From a virus: 64,000 nucleotides of DNA. Both the position numbers and the translations under genes were made by a program. The stretch is from the UHGV virus genome UHGV-0236300, one strand, 5' to 3'. Positions 3,833 to 11,799 of this stretch are shown in pieces. How positions within the stretch are numbered: the stretch's first letter is position 1; the number at the start of each line of letters is the position of its first letter. Below the pieces are notes generated by a model. The model made no database searches and was not told the origin of the DNA. It worked only from the letters and a program-made list of their open reading frames with translations.

Positions 3833-5176
3833 ATGAGTAAAACCAAATTAGAACTTACCTGGATAGGTAAGAACGAGCGCAAAAAGCTAGAGCCTCACAT
3901 TTTGTTAGAAGATTCGAGCAAGTCTTATTACGCCAGTAAAAAGGTGACCGAAAACGATATTTTTGATAATAAACTGATTTTTGGAGATAACTTACTGGCA
4001 TTGAAGGCACTAGAGCAAGAGTATGCAGGCAAAGTGAAGTGTGTTTACATAGACCCGCCATTCAATACCGGAAGGGATTTTGAGCACTACGATGATAGCC
4101 TGGAGCACTCCATTTGGCTGGGCTTAATGCGGGACAGATTAGAAATAATTCGTAATCTGCTAAGCGATGATGGAGTGATATTCGTTCACTTAGATGACTG
4201 CGAAATGGCTTATTTAAAAGTCTTGATGGACGAGATTTTTGGTCGTGCAAATCAGTTAAATACCATATCGATGACTACAAATTGCCCTTCAGGCTTTAAG
4301 GCAACAGGAACTACAGTTTTCTCCACAGCAAACTTTTTGCTTGTATATGCAAAAGATCGTACCAAGAAACCACTTAACAAAATCTATATACCTAAAGAGT
4401 ATGATACGGGATATAACAAATATCTATTAAACCCAGATGACCATTATAAAAGTTGGACGTGGTGCGGTATTGCCGATGCGTTTGCAAAGGCCAATGGCTA
4501 TAAAGATACAAAAGAAGCCAAGAAAAAACTGCCTGATACATTTGATGATGAATTAGCACAATTTGCAATTGATAATGCAGAACGTGTATTTCAATCCGTT
4601 GCAATTGGCGGTGGTGCCAAAATAAAGAGAAAAGAAACTATCGAGAAGTCAAAGAAAGATAGGGATAAGGTTTATGTACATCCAAATGAGGATGTCGAAG
4701 GCTTTTATATCGCAAATGGTAGGCAAATGGTCTTTTATTCCAATAGGCTTTTGGAAATTGACGGCAAGATGCAGCCTGCTGAACTAATAACTGATGTTTG
4801 GACTGACATTAGTTGGAATGGAATAGCAAATGAAGGCGGCGTTAGTTTCAAAAATGGAAAAAAGCCCGAAGCGCTTTTGAAGCGAATTTTCGAAATGTGT
4901 ACGCGAGAAGGAGATTTAGTCTTGGATTCATTCGGCGGTTCAGGAACTACTGCTGCCGTAGCTCACAAGATGAAAAGACGTTGGATCTCTGTCGAGTTAG
5001 GTGATCATTGTCATACCCATATCATCCCGCGCTTGCAAAAAGTGATCGATGGCAAAGATCAAAGTGGTATTTCTAAATCTGTAAACTGGCAAGGTGGCGG
5101 GGGCTTTCGCTATTACAAACTTGCCCCGAACTTAGTTATGAAAGATAAGCTTGACTCAGAAGAAGATTTAGAGTAA
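3833..5176 (+). CDS. DNA methyltransferase, beta-class amino-MTase (N6-adenine or N4-cytosine)
   Basis: Motif IV IDPPFNT precedes motif I VLDSFGGSGTT (beta-class order); SD AAGGAGA 10 nt upstream. Confidence 0.8.
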   Translation: MSKTKLELTWIGKNERKKLEPHILLEDSSKSYYASKKVTENDIFDNKLIFGDNLLALKALEQEYAGKVKCVYIDPPFNTGRDFEHYDDSLEHSIWLGLMRDRLEIIRNLLSDDGVIFVHLDDCEMAYLKVLMDEIFGRANQLNTISMTTNCPSGFKATGTTVFSTANFLLVYAKDRTKKPLNKIYIPKEYDTGYNKYLLNPDDHYKSWTWCGIADAFAKANGYKDTKEAKKKLPDTFDDELAQFAIDNAERVFQSVAIGGGAKIKRKETIEKSKKDRDKVYVHPNEDVEGFYIANGRQMVFYSNRLLEIDGKMQPAELITDVWTDISWNGIANEGGVSFKNGKKPEALLKRIFEMCTREGDLVLDSFGGSGTTAAVAHKMKRRWISVELGDHCHTHIIPRLQKVIDGKDQSGISKSVNWQGGGGFRYYKLAPNLVMKDKLDSEEDLE

Positions 5177-5235: not shown

Positions 5236-5478
5236 ATGAAGCGTTATAAACCATACACTTTTGAAATCGATTTCGAACTTGACGATATGCTCACTGTAGA
5301 AGCTCAGGCAGTTGTCCAGTTGCCAGATCCGGAGTGCCGTGATTCTGATGTTGATTATTATGGATTTAGACAGATTACTGATGTGCATGTTTACCACACA
5401 ACGGAGAAGAGGTGGATTTTCACCAGTTACCAAACGATCTGCGCCACTCGATTTACAAACGTGCAGCACGTGAACTAG
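5236..5478 (+). CDS. hypothetical protein
   Basis: ORF with 5' leader nearly identical to that of the MTase at 3833 (TAAGGAGARCACCAAACGATG). Confidence 0.45.
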   Translation: MKRYKPYTFEIDFELDDMLTVEAQAVVQLPDPECRDSDVDYYGFRQITDVHVYHTTEKRWIFTSYQTICATRFTNVQHVN

Positions 5479-5539
5479 AGTCCTATCTGGATGCAGCGAC
5501 GACAGCGGCAGCATTTGCTGAAGAAGTAGGAGGCTTCTA

Positions 5540-5938
5540 ATGATTACAGATGTGAAGATTATCCAATACCACCTAACCAAATTAGAAGATGCTGAAAAAG
5601 AGCTTGCAGAAGTTCTGAACAGTGGGTATACTTTACTGACATGCTCCTGCTCAGACACATACATTGTGTGGACACTTGCTAAGAAGGAAGAGCCTGCATG
5701 GATCTTGGTGCCAAACCCAGAGATCGCTAGTGAAGTTGATGGCTACTCCCAAGATAACGGCTTGCCAGAAGGTTGGGAAGTGTGGGAAGGTGGTGAAAAC
5801 CCTGCACCAGGTAAGTGGGTAAAATACAAACTACGTAGCGGTGCACAGTATGCTGACTACTCTGATGACCTAGACTGGAGTCACTCTTCACCAGGATCAT
5901 CTGCAAGTGCATATGATATTGTTGCTTTTCAGGAATAA
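5540..5938 (+). CDS. hypothetical protein
   Basis: ORF with SD GGAGG upstream; no motif. Confidence 0.5.
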   Translation: MITDVKIIQYHLTKLEDAEKELAEVLNSGYTLLTCSCSDTYIVWTLAKKEEPAWILVPNPEIASEVDGYSQDNGLPEGWEVWEGGENPAPGKWVKYKLRSGAQYADYSDDLDWSHSSPGSSASAYDIVAFQE

Positions 5939-5950
5939 GGAGAGGGTGTT

Positions 5951-6433
5951 ATGTCAGATTTTATGTGGAAGGTAGGTTATGCCTCTCCTGAAATGTGTGA
6001 GGCTTGTTTTGTGAAAATAGGCCGCGAGGATATTGACAAAGTGATCCTTAAGTTTCGTGATGTGTCTGTAATCGGCAACCGAGTTCTTAAGCACTTAAAG
6101 AATCTGAAGCTCACCAAGAAGAAGTTCTTCGGACTTTTCGAAGAGAAAGTTGATGCTTGGACCCATTGCATTCAGGAAGCTAAATCTCACTACAGTGCTA
6201 TCGTTACTCCGGAACGGGTAGCCAAGATGGAAGGATTCATCAACAGCACGGAGTTTGAGTGCCTAAAGGCTGCCCTTGATAGCTATCCAAAGTGCCTCAA
6301 ACACCTTGACAAGTATGTAGAAAAGGATGGTGAAATGTATCTCACCCTGGACGCATACTATGAGATGCAAGAAATTTTAAATTTAGATTTGACATTGGTA
6401 TCCACCGAGTATACAATAGGTATCCGGGTTTAA
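5951..6433 (+). CDS. hypothetical protein
   Basis: ORF followed by a strong intrinsic terminator. Confidence 0.5.
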   Translation: MSDFMWKVGYASPEMCEACFVKIGREDIDKVILKFRDVSVIGNRVLKHLKNLKLTKKKFFGLFEEKVDAWTHCIQEAKSHYSAIVTPERVAKMEGFINSTEFECLKAALDSYPKCLKHLDKYVEKDGEMYLTLDAYYEMQEILNLDLTLVSTEYTIGIRV

Positions 6434-6439
6434 CACTAT

Positions 6440-6468
6440 GCCCTGCCCGAAAGGGTGGGGCTTTTTGC
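6440..6468 (+). terminator. rho-independent terminator (GAAA tetraloop hairpin + T5)
   Basis: GCCCTGCCC-GAAA-GGGTGGGGC stem-loop followed by TTTTT; near-identical copy at 17441. Confidence 0.7.
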
Positions 6469-6484
6469 ATTAGGAGACAGCAAA

Positions 6485-7249
6485 TTGAAATTTATCTACA
6501 AAGAACACTACCACAAAGGTGTCGTGTGGAGTCTATTTGACGGGTCTGGTGGTGCAGTTATTGACTGGGCAAAAGCTGGGTACCTGTGCCTGTGCTTTAA
6601 TGCAGAAGGTGCTGACCACGGTAGTTATGCAGAGGTGATAACCGATCATCCTAACATTCACTATGTGGATTATTGGATTGATCCATGGTTCCCTCAAGAA
6701 ACTTTTTGCATGTATCCAGCTCCAGACTTTATTCTTGCATTTCCTCCGTGCACGCATTTAGCAGTATCCGGAGCTGCACACTTTAAGAAAAAGCTGGCTA
6801 AGGACCCACTGATCCAAATTAATGCTGTGAAAGATGCTCGGGTTGCAGAAGAGTTGGGAGAGATTTATGATTGCCCGTGGCATGTAGAGAACCCTGTAGG
6901 AGTTATGTCAACACTGTGGCGAAAACCTGATTACCGTTTTCATCCTTCGGATTATGGTGGGTATCTACCAGAGGACGATGTAAACCCATGGTTTCCTGAA
7001 TTTATAGCTCCACGTGATGCCTACCCAAAAATAACTTGCGGTTGGATAGGCAATGGATTTATAATCCCCGCCACAAAACCTGTCCCGCAAATAGTTGATG
7101 TGGTTAGTGGTTATTCCATGCAACACGCTAAGCTAGGTGGAAAGAGTGCAAGGACGAAGATGATTCGAAGCCTTACACCACGTGGCTGGGCAAGAGCTGT
7201 ATTCTTAGCAAACGAGCCTGCAGTAAGGAGAAGAATTAATGGGCAGTAA
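6485..7249 (+). CDS. C5-cytosine DNA methyltransferase-like protein (divergent, short)
   Basis: FDGSGG (motif I-like), FPPCTHLAVSG (PCQ-like motif IV with Thr for Gln), ENPVGV (ENV-like motif VI); start uncertain (TTG 6485 after SD AGGAGA; track start 6455 lies inside the terminator hairpin). Confidence 0.5.
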   Translation: MKFIYKEHYHKGVVWSLFDGSGGAVIDWAKAGYLCLCFNAEGADHGSYAEVITDHPNIHYVDYWIDPWFPQETFCMYPAPDFILAFPPCTHLAVSGAAHFKKKLAKDPLIQINAVKDARVAEELGEIYDCPWHVENPVGVMSTLWRKPDYRFHPSDYGGYLPEDDVNPWFPEFIAPRDAYPKITCGWIGNGFIIPATKPVPQIVDVVSGYSMQHAKLGGKSARTKMIRSLTPRGWARAVFLANEPAVRRRINGQ

Positions 7250-9317
7250 ATTCATGGCATCTGCATACAACCGTTTCGGTGAGCCAAACCCGAAAGCAAC
7301 TAAGTATAAAAGTGGGGGAAGTGTGAAACGAGACTATCGTGATGAAAAAGAAGTTGAAACTGTAGAGACTGTTTTAGAAAATACTAAAATTGTCCCTGTT
7401 CCACAACAAAATATTGGACTGATGGCTGCACAATATTTTGGTGTACGATCATCGCTATCCCAAGAGGATGGTGTAACTGTTACTGCCACCTACTTTCCGT
7501 ATTATGACCGCTACGGTAATCTATCTGGCTTTAAAAAGCGGGACTGGACAATCCCTAAAGAGCAAAGGGGCCATTTCTCGGTTGTTGGCATAGTAAAGGC
7601 CAACTCCCAGATGTTTGGTCAAAAGCTGTGTGCATCCTCCAACAACCGCAAGCAGATTAACGTTTGTGAGGGGGAAGGAGATGTTATTGCAGCGTGGCAG
7701 GCTGCATATCAGGTACAAGTAAAAGGAATTCTCACCAATACTAAAGCCCCGGCGAAGGTGAAGCAGTGGGCTAAAGAAGTCCAGGATGGGATTGATGCAG
7801 TTATCAACGGCGGTGATCTGGCAGGAAAACCATGCCTGCCTTTTGTCGGAATTAACTGCGGGTGTGCAAACGCCGTAGACACTTTTGCGAACAATGAGAA
7901 ATTTATCCGTAGCTACGGAACAGTAGTCCTTGCAATGGACAACGATGCAGCTAACGAGGTAGAGAAGCAAAAACACGTTATCAAAGGTGTTGAAGCTACG
8001 CATAATATCGCAGCATTTTTGATGGCTGACAACGTTTACCACGTGGAATACCCAGGTGAGGTAAACGACCCTGATGGTGTAAAAGATATTCGTGACATGC
8101 TGAAGGCTAAAAAGCTGGAAGATATTGTCAACATGTTCCGTCACCCAGTCAAATATGTGCCTGATGCTGTATCTGATTTAGAAGACTTCTCCATTGAATC
8201 TCTTCGTAAGAAGACTTCCAATGGCGTGGATATCAGTGCAGAGTTCCCTAAACTGCAGAAGATGCTGAAAGGACTCCACAAAGGCACCTTGATGATGCTG
8301 ACAGGCCCGTCTGGCGGTGGTAAAACAACTGTAGCCAAGAAGCTGGAACATTGCATTGCAAGATACTTGATGGACCCAACATGCCCTAAAGCTGATGATT
8401 ATGAAGAGGATGATCGCCTGTGCCTGATTCACCTTGAAGAGGATCCTGAGGAAGCAATCAACTCTCTGTACGCTAACCAGCTGGGGTTTGATGTTAAAGA
8501 GTTTGTTGAAGACCCCAGTCAGTTCCTGACCGATCAGGAGCACGCTGAGATTCATCAATCTTGGGCCAAGGCCGGAAAAATCAAAGTGTTCAAGCATTTC
8601 GGCTCCATCCCTGTAGATGAGCTGATCACTAAGCTTAAACAAATGGTGTGCCTGTATCACTGCCGTTACATTGTGCTGGATCACTTGTCTATGGTGATTT
8701 CAGGGCTTAATGTTAAGGATGAGCGTAAAGAGCTTGACATGGCTATGACTCAACTAGCCGCGTTCTGTAAGCAGTTTAATGTGTTTATCTTGGTGATTGC
8801 TCACCTGAAGCGCACAGAGATTGTACCTCCGAAGGATAAGGATGGAAATCCGTTACCTTTCTGGTACCCTGTACGAAAAGAGAACCTTCGCGGTAGTGCC
8901 GGATTGGAGCAACTTAGCTGGGTGGTTGTCGGGGTAGAGGCAGAGGAGATGGTGGATCGTTCCCGTGGGCGTGTCCGGCTGGTAGGTCTTAAAAACCGCC
9001 CAGCAAAAACCTTAGGTATTGCGGACACTCTAGTTATGGATCCCCACACAGGCAAGTTCCACGATGCCAGCAATTGGTATTGGGATAAAGAGATGCAGAT
9101 GTTTACAGACGGGGAAGGTGGAGAGGTTGTTTGGAGACCTCAAGCTATGTTTGAGGATCAGGAGCATGCAGTTGTAGAAACACCTGTGGGCAAGGTTGTG
9201 GCTGATAAGGTTATAACTCCTGCTGTTAACCCTGTTGACACACAGGAAGATCTTCAGTATGATGATCCGTCCTCTAACCACGTTCCTGGTTTTGAAGACG
9301 ACGAAACACCTTTTTAA
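7239..9317 (+). CDS. bifunctional primase-helicase (toprim primase + DnaB-like helicase, T7 gp4-like)
   Basis: Toprim-like CEGEGD and MDNDAAN; helicase Walker A TGPSGGGKTT, Walker B IVLDHL, LVIAHLKR; acidic C-terminus ending DDETPF. Confidence 0.85.
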   Translation: MGSKFMASAYNRFGEPNPKATKYKSGGSVKRDYRDEKEVETVETVLENTKIVPVPQQNIGLMAAQYFGVRSSLSQEDGVTVTATYFPYYDRYGNLSGFKKRDWTIPKEQRGHFSVVGIVKANSQMFGQKLCASSNNRKQINVCEGEGDVIAAWQAAYQVQVKGILTNTKAPAKVKQWAKEVQDGIDAVINGGDLAGKPCLPFVGINCGCANAVDTFANNEKFIRSYGTVVLAMDNDAANEVEKQKHVIKGVEATHNIAAFLMADNVYHVEYPGEVNDPDGVKDIRDMLKAKKLEDIVNMFRHPVKYVPDAVSDLEDFSIESLRKKTSNGVDISAEFPKLQKMLKGLHKGTLMMLTGPSGGGKTTVAKKLEHCIARYLMDPTCPKADDYEEDDRLCLIHLEEDPEEAINSLYANQLGFDVKEFVEDPSQFLTDQEHAEIHQSWAKAGKIKVFKHFGSIPVDELITKLKQMVCLYHCRYIVLDHLSMVISGLNVKDERKELDMAMTQLAAFCKQFNVFILVIAHLKRTEIVPPKDKDGNPLPFWYPVRKENLRGSAGLEQLSWVVVGVEAEEMVDRSRGRVRLVGLKNRPAKTLGIADTLVMDPHTGKFHDASNWYWDKEMQMFTDGEGGEVVWRPQAMFEDQEHAVVETPVGKVVADKVITPAVNPVDTQEDLQYDDPSSNHVPGFEDDETPF

Positions 9318-9375
9318 TGTTTAACCAAGAGTGGGAGGGGTAGTACAACCGCCTCCCCTTTAAGGAGAACTGTAT

Positions 9376-11799
9376 ATGAGCATGTGGTCGTTCGATTTTG
9401 AGGCCTCTGGCTTGCTGGAAGACCCAGATCTTTATTATCACTGCGGTTTGTTTAAAGAGCTGAATAAGAACCGTTTTATGCTGTTCCTTCCCCTAAATGA
9501 CCGCACACACTACTCTGAAGAGGATGTGGAGAAAGCTAAGAACTTCATTCTGGCAAAGAAGACCCTTTATACAGATTTTGAGGCTCGCATAGCAGATTTT
9601 TCAGAGTTGGAAGGCTGGCTTACAGGCAATTCAGACTGGTCACCTACGGCTTTGAACTGTCATAACTGCTACAGTTACGACTTTATGCTGATGGAAAGAT
9701 TATCCGGTATTCATTTTGATATGTTCCGTGATCCTAAATGCATGGGAACTATCAACGACCACCAGGTTAATCTGTTTGATACGTTAGCGATGAGTCGAAT
9801 CTTGTGGCCTGACCGCCCTTTGCCAAAAGGTTGTCCAGACGCAGTATTCAATCCAGTTACCAAGAAAATGCAGCCTGTTGGACCTCATGGTCTTATGGCA
9901 TGGGGCTATGCCCTTGGTAACCAGAAAGTTCAAATCGATGACTGGCGGGAGCTTCCGCTGTGGAAGTATGTGGATCGTGTGTTCGAGGACGTTATCATTC
10001 AGGAGTTGCTCTGGAAGGAGTTGGTAGCGGAATCAAAAGGTGTATTCTACGGCAAATCTGACATGCAGAACTTTATGTACGATCCTGCCAAAGAGAAGCC
10101 GAAAGGCTTCAAGAAGATCACCTGGAAGAACGCATTACGCCGAGGCATGTTACAGCACTTCCTGATGGAGCTGCAGGCTCGACAGGGGGTGTATTTCGAC
10201 ATAGATGGGGCTATTGCTTTACGTGATCGTTGCGATGCGTGGATGAAAGAGATCGCTGATCGTGTTGAACCACAGCTTCCTTTAAAAGAGTTATCAATGT
10301 CTCAGCGGCCTAAGTTCCCTGAAAAGCCGTTTAACCAGGATGGGACAATCTCCAATAATGGTTGGAAATGGTTAAAAGACAAGCTTGGCTATCCTGTGGA
10401 CATGAGTGCTTTAGAATTTAAAGCCCCTCCTAAGCGAGCATTTACCTCCACAGGGGATGTAAGTAAGATGGGGATAAAATGGTGTGAAGAGATGGGCTGT
10501 AAAGACCCCGATAAGATGGCTGATTTCTTGAGGGGGTATATCAAAGGAACTTCTACACCACACCCTTTACCTAAAGAGCTGATGGATCAGGCGATAAGTG
10601 ACCTACAGCAGAAGCGAATGCCTGACTGCAAGATACCCATGAAAATCAGCAATCAGGACGACATCAAGCGATACCTGATCAGTGCTGGTTGGCTCCCAAC
10701 AATGTGGAGAACTAAGGATGTAACTAAGGATAGCAAGAAGAAAGCTTTACCTGATGCAGATGTTGATGCACGAGTATATGCATATATGGACGAGCTTTTG
10801 GAGTCAGAGTATTGTGACCTAATTATCAACTTCTGGAACAAAACTGATGCTAAGTTCCAGACAACTGTACATAAGTTCAGAAGCTTCCCTAACTCTGAAA
10901 GAATTAAAAAGGAAGTGTTCGGGAAAATACGTAGAAAAGCCAGAGCGCTTATTACTTCTCCGCAACTGAAAGATACGTTTGGGCACCTGTGCCCGAATCT
11001 TGAAAAATTGAACGGAGAGATGGCTAAAGATATCGTTTTGTGGTTATCATTGCGAAACCGTAGATCGGTCCTTGATCCAATCAAGGAAGATAAGGTTGAT
11101 ACTGGTCTTCTTAATCATCCACGTTTGAAGATTGACCACAAACTTCCTGCTAAAAGTTCTGGATTAACAAACACTTCCAGACAGAAACATAGTATTTGTG
11201 CAAACATGCCTAAACCATCTCCTAAAGTGGTTATGGGTAAAGAGATGCGTAGTCTGTGGGGTGTTCCTCCGGGATACTTTGAGATCGGTATTGACGGGTC
11301 CAACTTAGAGCAGCTCATCGGGGCCTGGGGTGCCTTTGAGTTTGACAACGGTCTGTATTATGATGTTGTAAGTAACGGGGACGCGCACCAAAACAATGCT
11401 GAGGCATATACAAAAGTAGCAGGTAGAGAGGTGTCCCGTAACGATGGTAAACCTATCACGTATGGGGTTATGTATGGGGCACAAAAAGATAAAGTTGCAG
11501 ATATGCTGGATATCTCTCCCGAACTGGGGCAGAGAGTAATCGATGCTCTCTGGGATGCCAACCCAGGTCTTAAGGGGCGCAAAGAGGATCTGGAGAAATT
11601 CTGGGAAGCAACAGGTAAGAAATTTATCTACTCTTTTGACGGGCATGCTATTTGGACACGCTCTAAACACTCTTTGCTTAATGCATATCAGCAAAATGGC
11701 GGTGCATCACTGTGTGACCTAGTTGGGATACTCATGCACCACCAGATGGTGAAGCGTGGATGGTATGATGAGGGTGTTCGTCGTATTATTTATTACCAT
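9376..11799 (+). CDS. DNA polymerase, family A (T7 gp5-like), exon 1
   Basis: N-terminal exo motif FDFEASGL and AWGYALG; motif A IDGSNLE, motif B KPITYGVMYG; ORF stops right after ...IIYYH-K, the H being the His of motif C (HDE). Confidence 0.8.

Follow-up and report, generated by a model that had tools for sequence, protein, structure and literature searches.

A compact Vequintavirus protein of the PHROG 757 family as a likely orphan DNA cytosine-5 methyltransferase

We analyzed the open reading frame (ORF) at positions 6485–7249 in a 64,000-nucleotide stretch of the virus genome UHGV-0236300 (hereafter, the window). This ORF very likely encodes an orphan, S-adenosylmethionine (AdoMet)-dependent DNA methyltransferase of the cytosine-5 type (C5-MTase) in the compact PHROG 757 family. 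A preliminary description, made from the sequence alone, had proposed either a minimal C5-MTase or a C5-MTase-derived enzyme with altered chemistry, such as DNA base hypermodification. The first proposal was favored by the catalytic cysteine and glutamate residues, which were invariant across the family, and by the formation of 5-methylcytosine (5mC) reported for a homologue. No restriction endonuclease partner was detectable beside the gene, where the neighboring small ORFs gave no Pfam match, and the methyltransferase is therefore called orphan. Coordinates are positions in the window, and residue numbers are counted from the TTG codon at 6485.

6485..7249, + strand: coding sequence of the probable compact C5-cytosine DNA methyltransferase (TTG start, 254 amino acids, stop codon at 7247–7249)

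The window represents a Vequintavirus (rV5/FV3-like coliphage) and was up to 98.9% identical to published genomes. Over bases 6000–9400, it shared 93–99% identity with upwards of 100 genomes of Vequintavirus, among them rV5, FV3, S127 BCL3, and NHEP1. The product of ORF 6485–7249 is a homologue of rV5 gp226 and was near-identical to it over the full length, with a handful of substitutions. The RefSeq label of rV5 gp226 is "DNA methyltransferase", and several GenBank records read "DNA cytosine methyltransferase"; near-identical genes are labelled DNA (cytosine) methyltransferase in rV5, FV3, NHEP1, LL12, and others. The gene is thus already known: more than a hundred rV5-like phages carry its annotation, and its family has a studied member.

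The ORF product belongs to the compact phage-borne PHROG 757 family, whose members are often annotated as 'Dcm-like'. It matched the PHROG 757 profile "DNA methyltransferase" with an E-value of 8.9e-87 and 291 bits (residues 2–252 against profile positions 5–227 of 247). A metagenomic protein collection contained 4,183 homologues, and tblastn revealed the gene in 1,506 phage records, among them 577 Escherichia and 521 Klebsiella phage records. The carriers found by tblastn were Drexlerviridae (tinuso and BASEL phages), many Klebsiella siphophages, Vequintavirinae, and Arthrobacter phages. Homologues were 219–262 residues long, indicating that the short size is a family trait. Conservation was measured in two sets, an alignment of 38 diverse homologues and a set of 120 homologues. 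The blocks FDGSG, PPC(T), ENP, Y-x-K-x-T, and LGGKS..IRSLTPRG were all present in the query, and each was invariant or at least 90% conserved in both sets.

Three motifs named in the preliminary description (FDGSGG, FPPCTHLAVSG, and ENPVGV) were found where it had placed them:

6536..6553, + strand: motif I FDGSGG (residues 18–23), the AdoMet-binding loop after strand 1; G20 and S21 invariant, with conservation of at least 90% at F18 and G22
6740..6772, + strand: motif IV FPPCTHLAVSG (residues 86–96) with the nucleophile Cys89; P87, P88, and C89 invariant
6887..6904, + strand: motif VI ENPVGV (residues 135–140); E135, N136, and P137 invariant, with a strand at 132–136 in the predicted model

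In that model, motif I was flanked by a strand (residues 13–17) and a helix (residues 23–30), and it aligned with 'SLFDG' of DNMT3A and with motif I of M.HaeIII and CmoX. Alignment with hhalign paired motif IV with SPPCSAFSV of CmoX and SPCNDLS of DNMT3A. Cys89 and Glu135 correspond to C82 and E128, respectively, of Dcm from phage K42, and Glu135 is presumed to be the general acid that protonates N3 of cytosine. Because G20, S21, P87, P88, C89, E135, N136, and P137 were invariant in the 38 relatives, with T90 at least 90% conserved, and because motif IV read PPCT in 118 of the 120 homologues (PPCD in the remaining 2), the motifs are not chance matches. The C5-MTase signature of a motif I F-x-G-x-G, a Pro-Cys nucleophile, and a motif VI was present, with ENP replacing ENV, and these elements aligned with their counterparts in CmoX, DNMT3A, and M.HaeIII.

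The catalytic segment had been described as reading PCT in place of PCQ. This reading was correct and proved to be a family trait, but its interpretation as a sign of altered chemistry did not hold. DNMT3A, checked against PDB 2qrv, reads GGSPCNDLS at motif IV and 'SLFDG' at motif I, and CmoX reads SPPCSAFS at motif IV. As the bona fide DNMT3A has PCN and CmoX has PCS, PCT is not diagnostic. Of the two, it is the DNMT3A sequence that the family consensus, PPCTDLAVSG, most resembles.

AlphaFold2, run on the alignment, gave a confident model, with a predicted local distance difference test score (pLDDT) of 90 and a predicted template modeling score (pTM) of 0.89. Among the structural matches, DNMT3B/3A, 3g7u, M.HhaI, and M.HaeIII outscored DNMT2, and generic Rossmann folds ranked after them; in agreement, Foldseek placed the catalytic domains of DNMT3A and DNMT3B at the top with E-values of about 5e-7. 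Structure prediction, proposed earlier as a check, thus returned the C5-MTase fold. The Pfam result was marginal: the query did not match PF00145, 22 of the 38 relatives matched it weakly (E<1), and three (P0053, P0067, and P0069) passed the gathering score of 22 bits with 24.7–28.5 bits, covering only profile positions 4–94 (motifs I–IV).

The second half of the protein contained three further regions:

6950..7060, + strand: motif VIII-like region, comprising 'SDYGGYLP' (residues 155–162), a conserved insertion of about 17 residues, and 'YPKITCGWIGNGF' (residues 180–192, with a strand at 184–189)
7061..7132, + strand: short variable loop (residues 193–216) at the position of the target-recognition domain, '(Y/F/W)SxQ' variant
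7133..7204, + strand: highly conserved C-terminal block LGGKSARTKMIRSLTPRGWARAVF (residues 217–240), covering the putative equivalents of motifs IX and X

In the motif VIII-like region, G158, G159, Y160, L161, D178, Y180, K182, T184, W187, and F192 were invariant or nearly so among the 38 relatives, and 'SDYGGYLP' resembled the canonical 'DYG(V/I)PQ'. Judging from the sequence and the predicted secondary structure, 'DYGGYLP' (156–162) and 'YPK(K)TCxWxGNGF' (180–192) may together form a split motif VIII, interrupted by the insertion of about 17 residues. K182 in the second part is the counterpart of K175 in K42 Dcm.

In 116 of the 120 homologues, 21–25 residues separated the motif VIII strand (W-x-G-N-G-F) from the GGKS block, and the query had no target-recognition domain of appreciable size between motifs VIII and IX. 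The earlier remark that a typical target-recognition domain would not fit was therefore well founded, the whole protein having 254 residues. The loop fell into two sequence classes, (Y/F/W)SxQ (89/120, including the query) and xPGW (25/120, including the tinuso type). Loop 193–216 may have a role in specificity, and each of the two classes may have a recognition specificity of its own. That the recognition domain is reduced to a loop explains why the best structural matches were the catalytic domains of DNMT3, whose recognition regions are likewise tiny.

In the C-terminal block, G218, G219, T224, K225, I227, R228, S229, L230, R233, G234, and A238 were invariant in the 38 relatives. With DNMT3A, hhalign paired LGGKSxRTKxIRSL with motif X LLGRSWSVPVIRHL, placing K220 on R891 with R228 nearby; with M.HhaI, it paired RSLTPRGWARAV with motif IX RKLHPRECARVM. 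The alignments conflict and leave K220, R228, or S229 as candidates for the position of Asn304 in M.HhaI.

Activity has been reported for a homologue from phage K42 (Drexlerviridae, a relative of KarlJaspers). All K42 escapers of retron Ec86 were hit in a 711-bp 'dcm' gene, and the authors named C82, E128, K175, and K176 of its product as catalytic or binding residues, with K175 designated as DNA-binding by superposition on DNMT3A (10.1101/2023.08.16.553469). Liquid chromatography-mass spectrometry revealed high 5mC in the multicopy single-stranded DNA (msDNA) of Ec86 with wild-type K42 Dcm and low 5mC with the C82A/E128A/K175A/K176A mutant or the empty vector; the quadruple mutant also lost retron triggering (10.1101/2023.08.16.553469). 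The homologue of phage tinuso (Warwickvirus), which was 54% identical to the query, is encoded by 711 bp and has 236 residues counted from an internal ATG; its PPC cysteine, IENP glutamate, and YxK lysine fall at positions 82, 128, and 175. P0067 (236 residues) and several other members had C82, E128, K175, and K176 exactly. From these matches in length and residue numbering, K42 Dcm is very probably a member of the PHROG 757 family. The CCWGG target of K42 Dcm was assumed from E. coli Dcm and was supported only by mutation of the msDNA site (10.1101/2023.08.16.553469). We did not transfer CCWGG to the query, because its loop class differs from that of the K42 type. A parallel with the trigger of Dazbog was set aside, as that trigger is the unrelated SPR methylase.

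For the Vequintavirus protein itself, we infer the activity and the biological role; a mechanism can be proposed on the basis of its C5-MTase fold and conserved catalytic motifs. In it, the target cytosine would be flipped out of the helix, after which Cys89 in the PPC loop (motif IV) would attack C6 and Glu135 of ENP (motif VI) would protonate N3. AdoMet, bound by the FDGSGG loop together with the conserved C-terminal block, would then pass its methyl group to C5, and beta-elimination would release 5-methylcytosine. The most likely role would be methylation of new phage DNA at a short specific motif, shielding it from cytosine-sensitive host restriction. Such methylation may carry a cost, namely sensing by host defenses such as retron Ec86.

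Several observations weigh against a C5-MTase with this protective role. The sequence-based searches gave little: the query had no PF00145 match even at E<10, neither the query nor the tinuso homologue matched NCBIfam, and searches of the PDB by sequence, whether with the query alone or with the family profile, returned a motif I fragment of M.HaeIII (E=1) at most. The canonical Q-x-R-x-R of motif VIII was not evident, lysine and threonine standing for the arginines. The assignment of motifs IX and X was ambiguous, since the hhalign runs against M.HhaI, DNMT3A, and SpCmoX contradicted one another in the C-terminal half. The production of 5mC has been reported only for the K42 homologue and not for any Vequintavirus copy. 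The placement of K42 Dcm in the family relied on the length of its gene and the numbering of its residues rather than on a direct comparison of sequences, and the K42-type loop is xPGW, whereas that of the query is of the YSxQ class. In BASEL phenotyping, the MTase genes of Drexlerviridae phages were not correlated with restriction resistance, and Vequintavirinae were very restriction-sensitive; shielding from restriction is therefore only a candidate role.

The proposal of altered chemistry or hypermodification was not supported, given that PCT is not diagnostic, that neither CmoA nor CmoY is encoded in the window, and that Vequintavirinae are restriction-sensitive. The closest precedent for such chemistry is CmoX, a natural C5-carboxymethyltransferase described in 2025 and defined by SPPC together with Arg350, which replaces Asn304 of M.HhaI (PMC12783734). 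CmoX needs carboxy-S-adenosylmethionine (Cx-SAM) made by CmoA, and the ligase CmoY then extends what CmoX has produced; the CmoA of E. coli itself gives enough Cx-SAM in vivo, and an engineered M.MpeI variant that accepts Cx-SAM carries N374K (PMC12783734). It is quite improbable that the ORF encodes a C5-MTase-derived transferase that uses a non-AdoMet cofactor (most plausibly Cx-SAM from host CmoA) and would deposit 5-carboxymethylcytosine or another handle instead of, or alongside, 5mC. The family does combine PPC with an invariant basic residue near motif X (K220, on R891 of DNMT3A in one hhalign solution, with R228 near), recalling both the Arg350 of CmoX and the N374K variant. A basic residue at this position is not diagnostic, however, because DNMT3A also has an arginine there and yet uses AdoMet. 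Phenylalanine rather than serine precedes PPC, so that the query, with FPPC, does not literally show the SPPC of the CmoX definition. The K42 study followed 5mC alone, and 5-carboxymethylcytosine would therefore have gone unseen in it; against this, the 5mC of msDNA rose when the K42 homologue was expressed.

We used SpCmoA, SpCmoX, and SpCmoY of Synechococcus phage S-B43 as comparison queries (SpCmoX, PDB 8yf3). In the window, tblastn with SpCmoA and SpCmoY detected no CmoA or CmoY homologue (best E=0.4). Escherichia and Klebsiella phages were absent from the organism names listed (three minor categories apart) for 72 CmoA-bearing phage records, in contrast to the 577 Escherichia and 521 Klebsiella phage records for the query family. 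CmoX also belongs to PF00145 over its full length, unlike the query, and the Vequintavirinae have been described as 'exceptionally susceptible' to restriction-modification of types I, II, and III, which counts against bulk cytosine hypermodification. A combined form carries a similarly low probability, namely a distinct near-minimal C5 transferase with no separate recognition domain, in which the insertion of about 17 residues and the loop of about 22 residues could read DNA and which, in enterobacterial hosts producing Cx-SAM, might leave some 5-carboxymethylcytosine besides 5mC.

Slightly less probable still is methylation of RNA (DNMT2-like, for instance on tRNA) or a DNA substrate other than the phage duplex, namely single-stranded or replicative intermediates. 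The very small recognition region leaves the mode of duplex recognition unclear, and the substrate of the K42 homologue was the stem-loop of retron msDNA and not phage genomic DNA. The product of that homologue was nevertheless 5-methyl-deoxycytidine in DNA, the structural matches that outscored DNMT2 (DNMT3B/3A, 3g7u, M.HhaI, and M.HaeIII) are DNA methyltransferases, and the gene has DNA replication genes around it and another DNA methyltransferase gene nearby. The least probable of these alternatives is that the protein derives from a methyltransferase but has lost catalysis or is not an enzyme, for instance one that binds DNA or serves as a decoy, with its motifs as relics: the failure of the PF00145 model, the lack of a normal target-recognition domain, and the missing motif VIII arginines would fit it, but every catalytic and cofactor motif shows little or no variation over thousands of homologues in unrelated phage lineages, which implies selection on catalysis, and mutation of the equivalent Cys, Glu, and Lys in K42 Dcm ended both 5mC formation and retron triggering. 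A thymidylate-synthase-type dCMP-modifying enzyme was ruled out by its wrong fold.

The start codon of the methyltransferase gene had been described as ambiguous, with a start lying inside the upstream terminator hairpin. This was correct for the longest ORF, whose maximal limits are 6455–7249 (+) with a GTG start: GTG 6455 sits in the 3' arm of the hairpin stem (6440–6461), and we regard it as spurious. The ambiguity could be resolved in favor of TTG 6485, a credible start, on the basis of three observations. A Shine-Dalgarno sequence is suitably spaced from it, the RefSeq annotation of rV5 uses the equivalent start with a coding sequence also of 765 bp, and an 80%-identical homologue begins with MDFIYK in the same alignment column as the TTG 6485 product. 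The upstream signals are as follows:

6389..6417, + strand: putative sigma-70-like promoter TTGACA-17 nt-TACAAT (11 of 12 consensus positions; consensus match only)
6440..6466, + strand: intrinsic terminator-like hairpin (stem 6440–6461 of 9 bp with 7 G-C pairs, GAAA loop, followed by TTTTT)
6472..6476, + strand: Shine-Dalgarno AGGAG (8-nt spacing to TTG 6485, read from the sequence)

The hairpin closes the upstream gene and leaves just 18 nt up to the start of the methyltransferase gene; it lies downstream of the promoter, the equivalent of which is annotated as P231 in rV5. Because the promoter lies upstream of the hairpin, transcripts starting there must read through the hairpin or keep a 5' stem-loop. 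This order of elements could be an attenuating or stabilizing arrangement.

The methyltransferase gene is located in the replication module, with the following neighbors:

3833–5176, + strand: second DNA methyltransferase, N6/N4 type, 447 amino acids (PF01555, 147 bits; DPPF motif; homologue of rV5 gp230)
5236–6433, + strand: three small ORFs (80, 132, and 160 amino acids) between the two methyltransferase genes, hypothetical proteins gp229–gp227 in rV5, for which no Pfam match was found
7239..9317, + strand: primase/helicase gene with DnaB_C and AAA_25 domains (rV5 gp225)

With its ATG at 7239, the primase/helicase gene shares 11 nt with the 3' end of the methyltransferase gene, and because of this overlap the two genes are probably translationally coupled. 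A family A DNA polymerase gene comes after the primase/helicase gene. ARAGORN detected no tRNA genes in the window; since rV5 reportedly encodes six, the tRNA cluster must fall outside it.

The N6/N4 methylase gene lies 1.3 kb upstream of the cytosine methyltransferase gene. A 2025 paper reported that the N6-adenine methyltransferase of Vequintavirus Bas51, a candidate homologue of the product of ORF 3833–5176, methylates GATC and GTAC and triggers the retrons Asa1 and Squ1. The nanopore study of Bas51 covered adenines only (PMC12548924). As for cytosine methylation in the Vequintavirus literature, the rV5 genome paper mentions neither methylation nor restriction, and a preprint on Druantia had no bearing on the question.

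Counts of recognition sites in the window were uninformative on the target of the cytosine methyltransferase, with observed/expected ratios of 0.8–0.85 for CCWGG, CCGG, GGCC, and GCGC (for CCWGG, 118 observed and 138 expected, 0.85). Separately, in this window only and uncorrected for multiple testing, RCCGGY occurred once against 11.3 expected (0.09), GTAC and CTAG had ratios of 0.61 and 0.60, and neither GATC, at 1.01, nor CCWGG was avoided. The depletion of RCCGGY may reflect avoidance of a restriction enzyme of the Cfr10I/BsrFI type.

For a known gene from a family with a studied member, the present finding adds little. With members that rank among the smallest C5-MTases and a structure nearest to the DNMT3 catalytic domain, the family is a possible minimal scaffold for studying target reading without a recognition domain. 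Methyltransferases of this family can also trigger retron Ec86, which is relevant to the choice of therapeutic Vequintaviruses against hosts with such defenses.

We compared the query with four known systems. Within PHROG 757, the 'Dcm-like' proteins (rV5 gp226, the C5 cytosine methyltransferase of BASEL Drexlerviridae, and K42 Dcm) share its length class and invariant blocks. Unlike the K42/tinuso type, the query has a Vequintavirus-specific N-terminal extension of about 10 residues, and Ile183 stands where K42 Dcm has Lys176. SpCmoX and the query are both phage-encoded and both have the PPC catalytic motif. SpCmoX, however, has 372 residues, matches PF00145 over the full length at 181 bits, has a serine ahead of PPC and a clear motif X, GRMVPP, that includes Arg350, and is encoded beside CmoA and CmoY, whereas the query has no PF00145 match and phenylalanine before PPC, and its window contains neither companion gene.

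The canonical type II C5-MTases (M.HhaI, M.HaeIII, and the E. coli Dcm/EcoRII type, 3lx6) have motifs I, IV, and VI in the same order as the query and share the presumed mechanism of covalent catalysis. They are 320–480 residues long, have a target-recognition domain of 80–150 residues between motifs VIII and IX where the query has 21–25 residues, match PF00145 strongly, and read PCQ and ENV, in contrast to the PCT and ENP of the query. Neither kinship nor specificity placed the query among the CCWGG methyltransferases of the E. coli Dcm/M.EcoRII type, and the name 'Dcm-like' reflects presumed function rather than close kinship. The catalytic domains of DNMT3A and DNMT3B are, like the query, compact with a very small target-recognition region. 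Both have 'SLFDG' at motif I, PC(N/T)DL(S/A) rather than PCQ at motif IV, and a basic residue in an 'LGxS' C-terminal block. The identity was only 13–15%, and the query is about 30 residues shorter than the DNMT3A catalytic domain, has no clear motif IX region, and is without PWWP and ADD domains or a DNMT3L-type partner. In the near-absence of a separate target-recognition domain, the enzyme is nonetheless closest to the DNMT3 catalytic domain.

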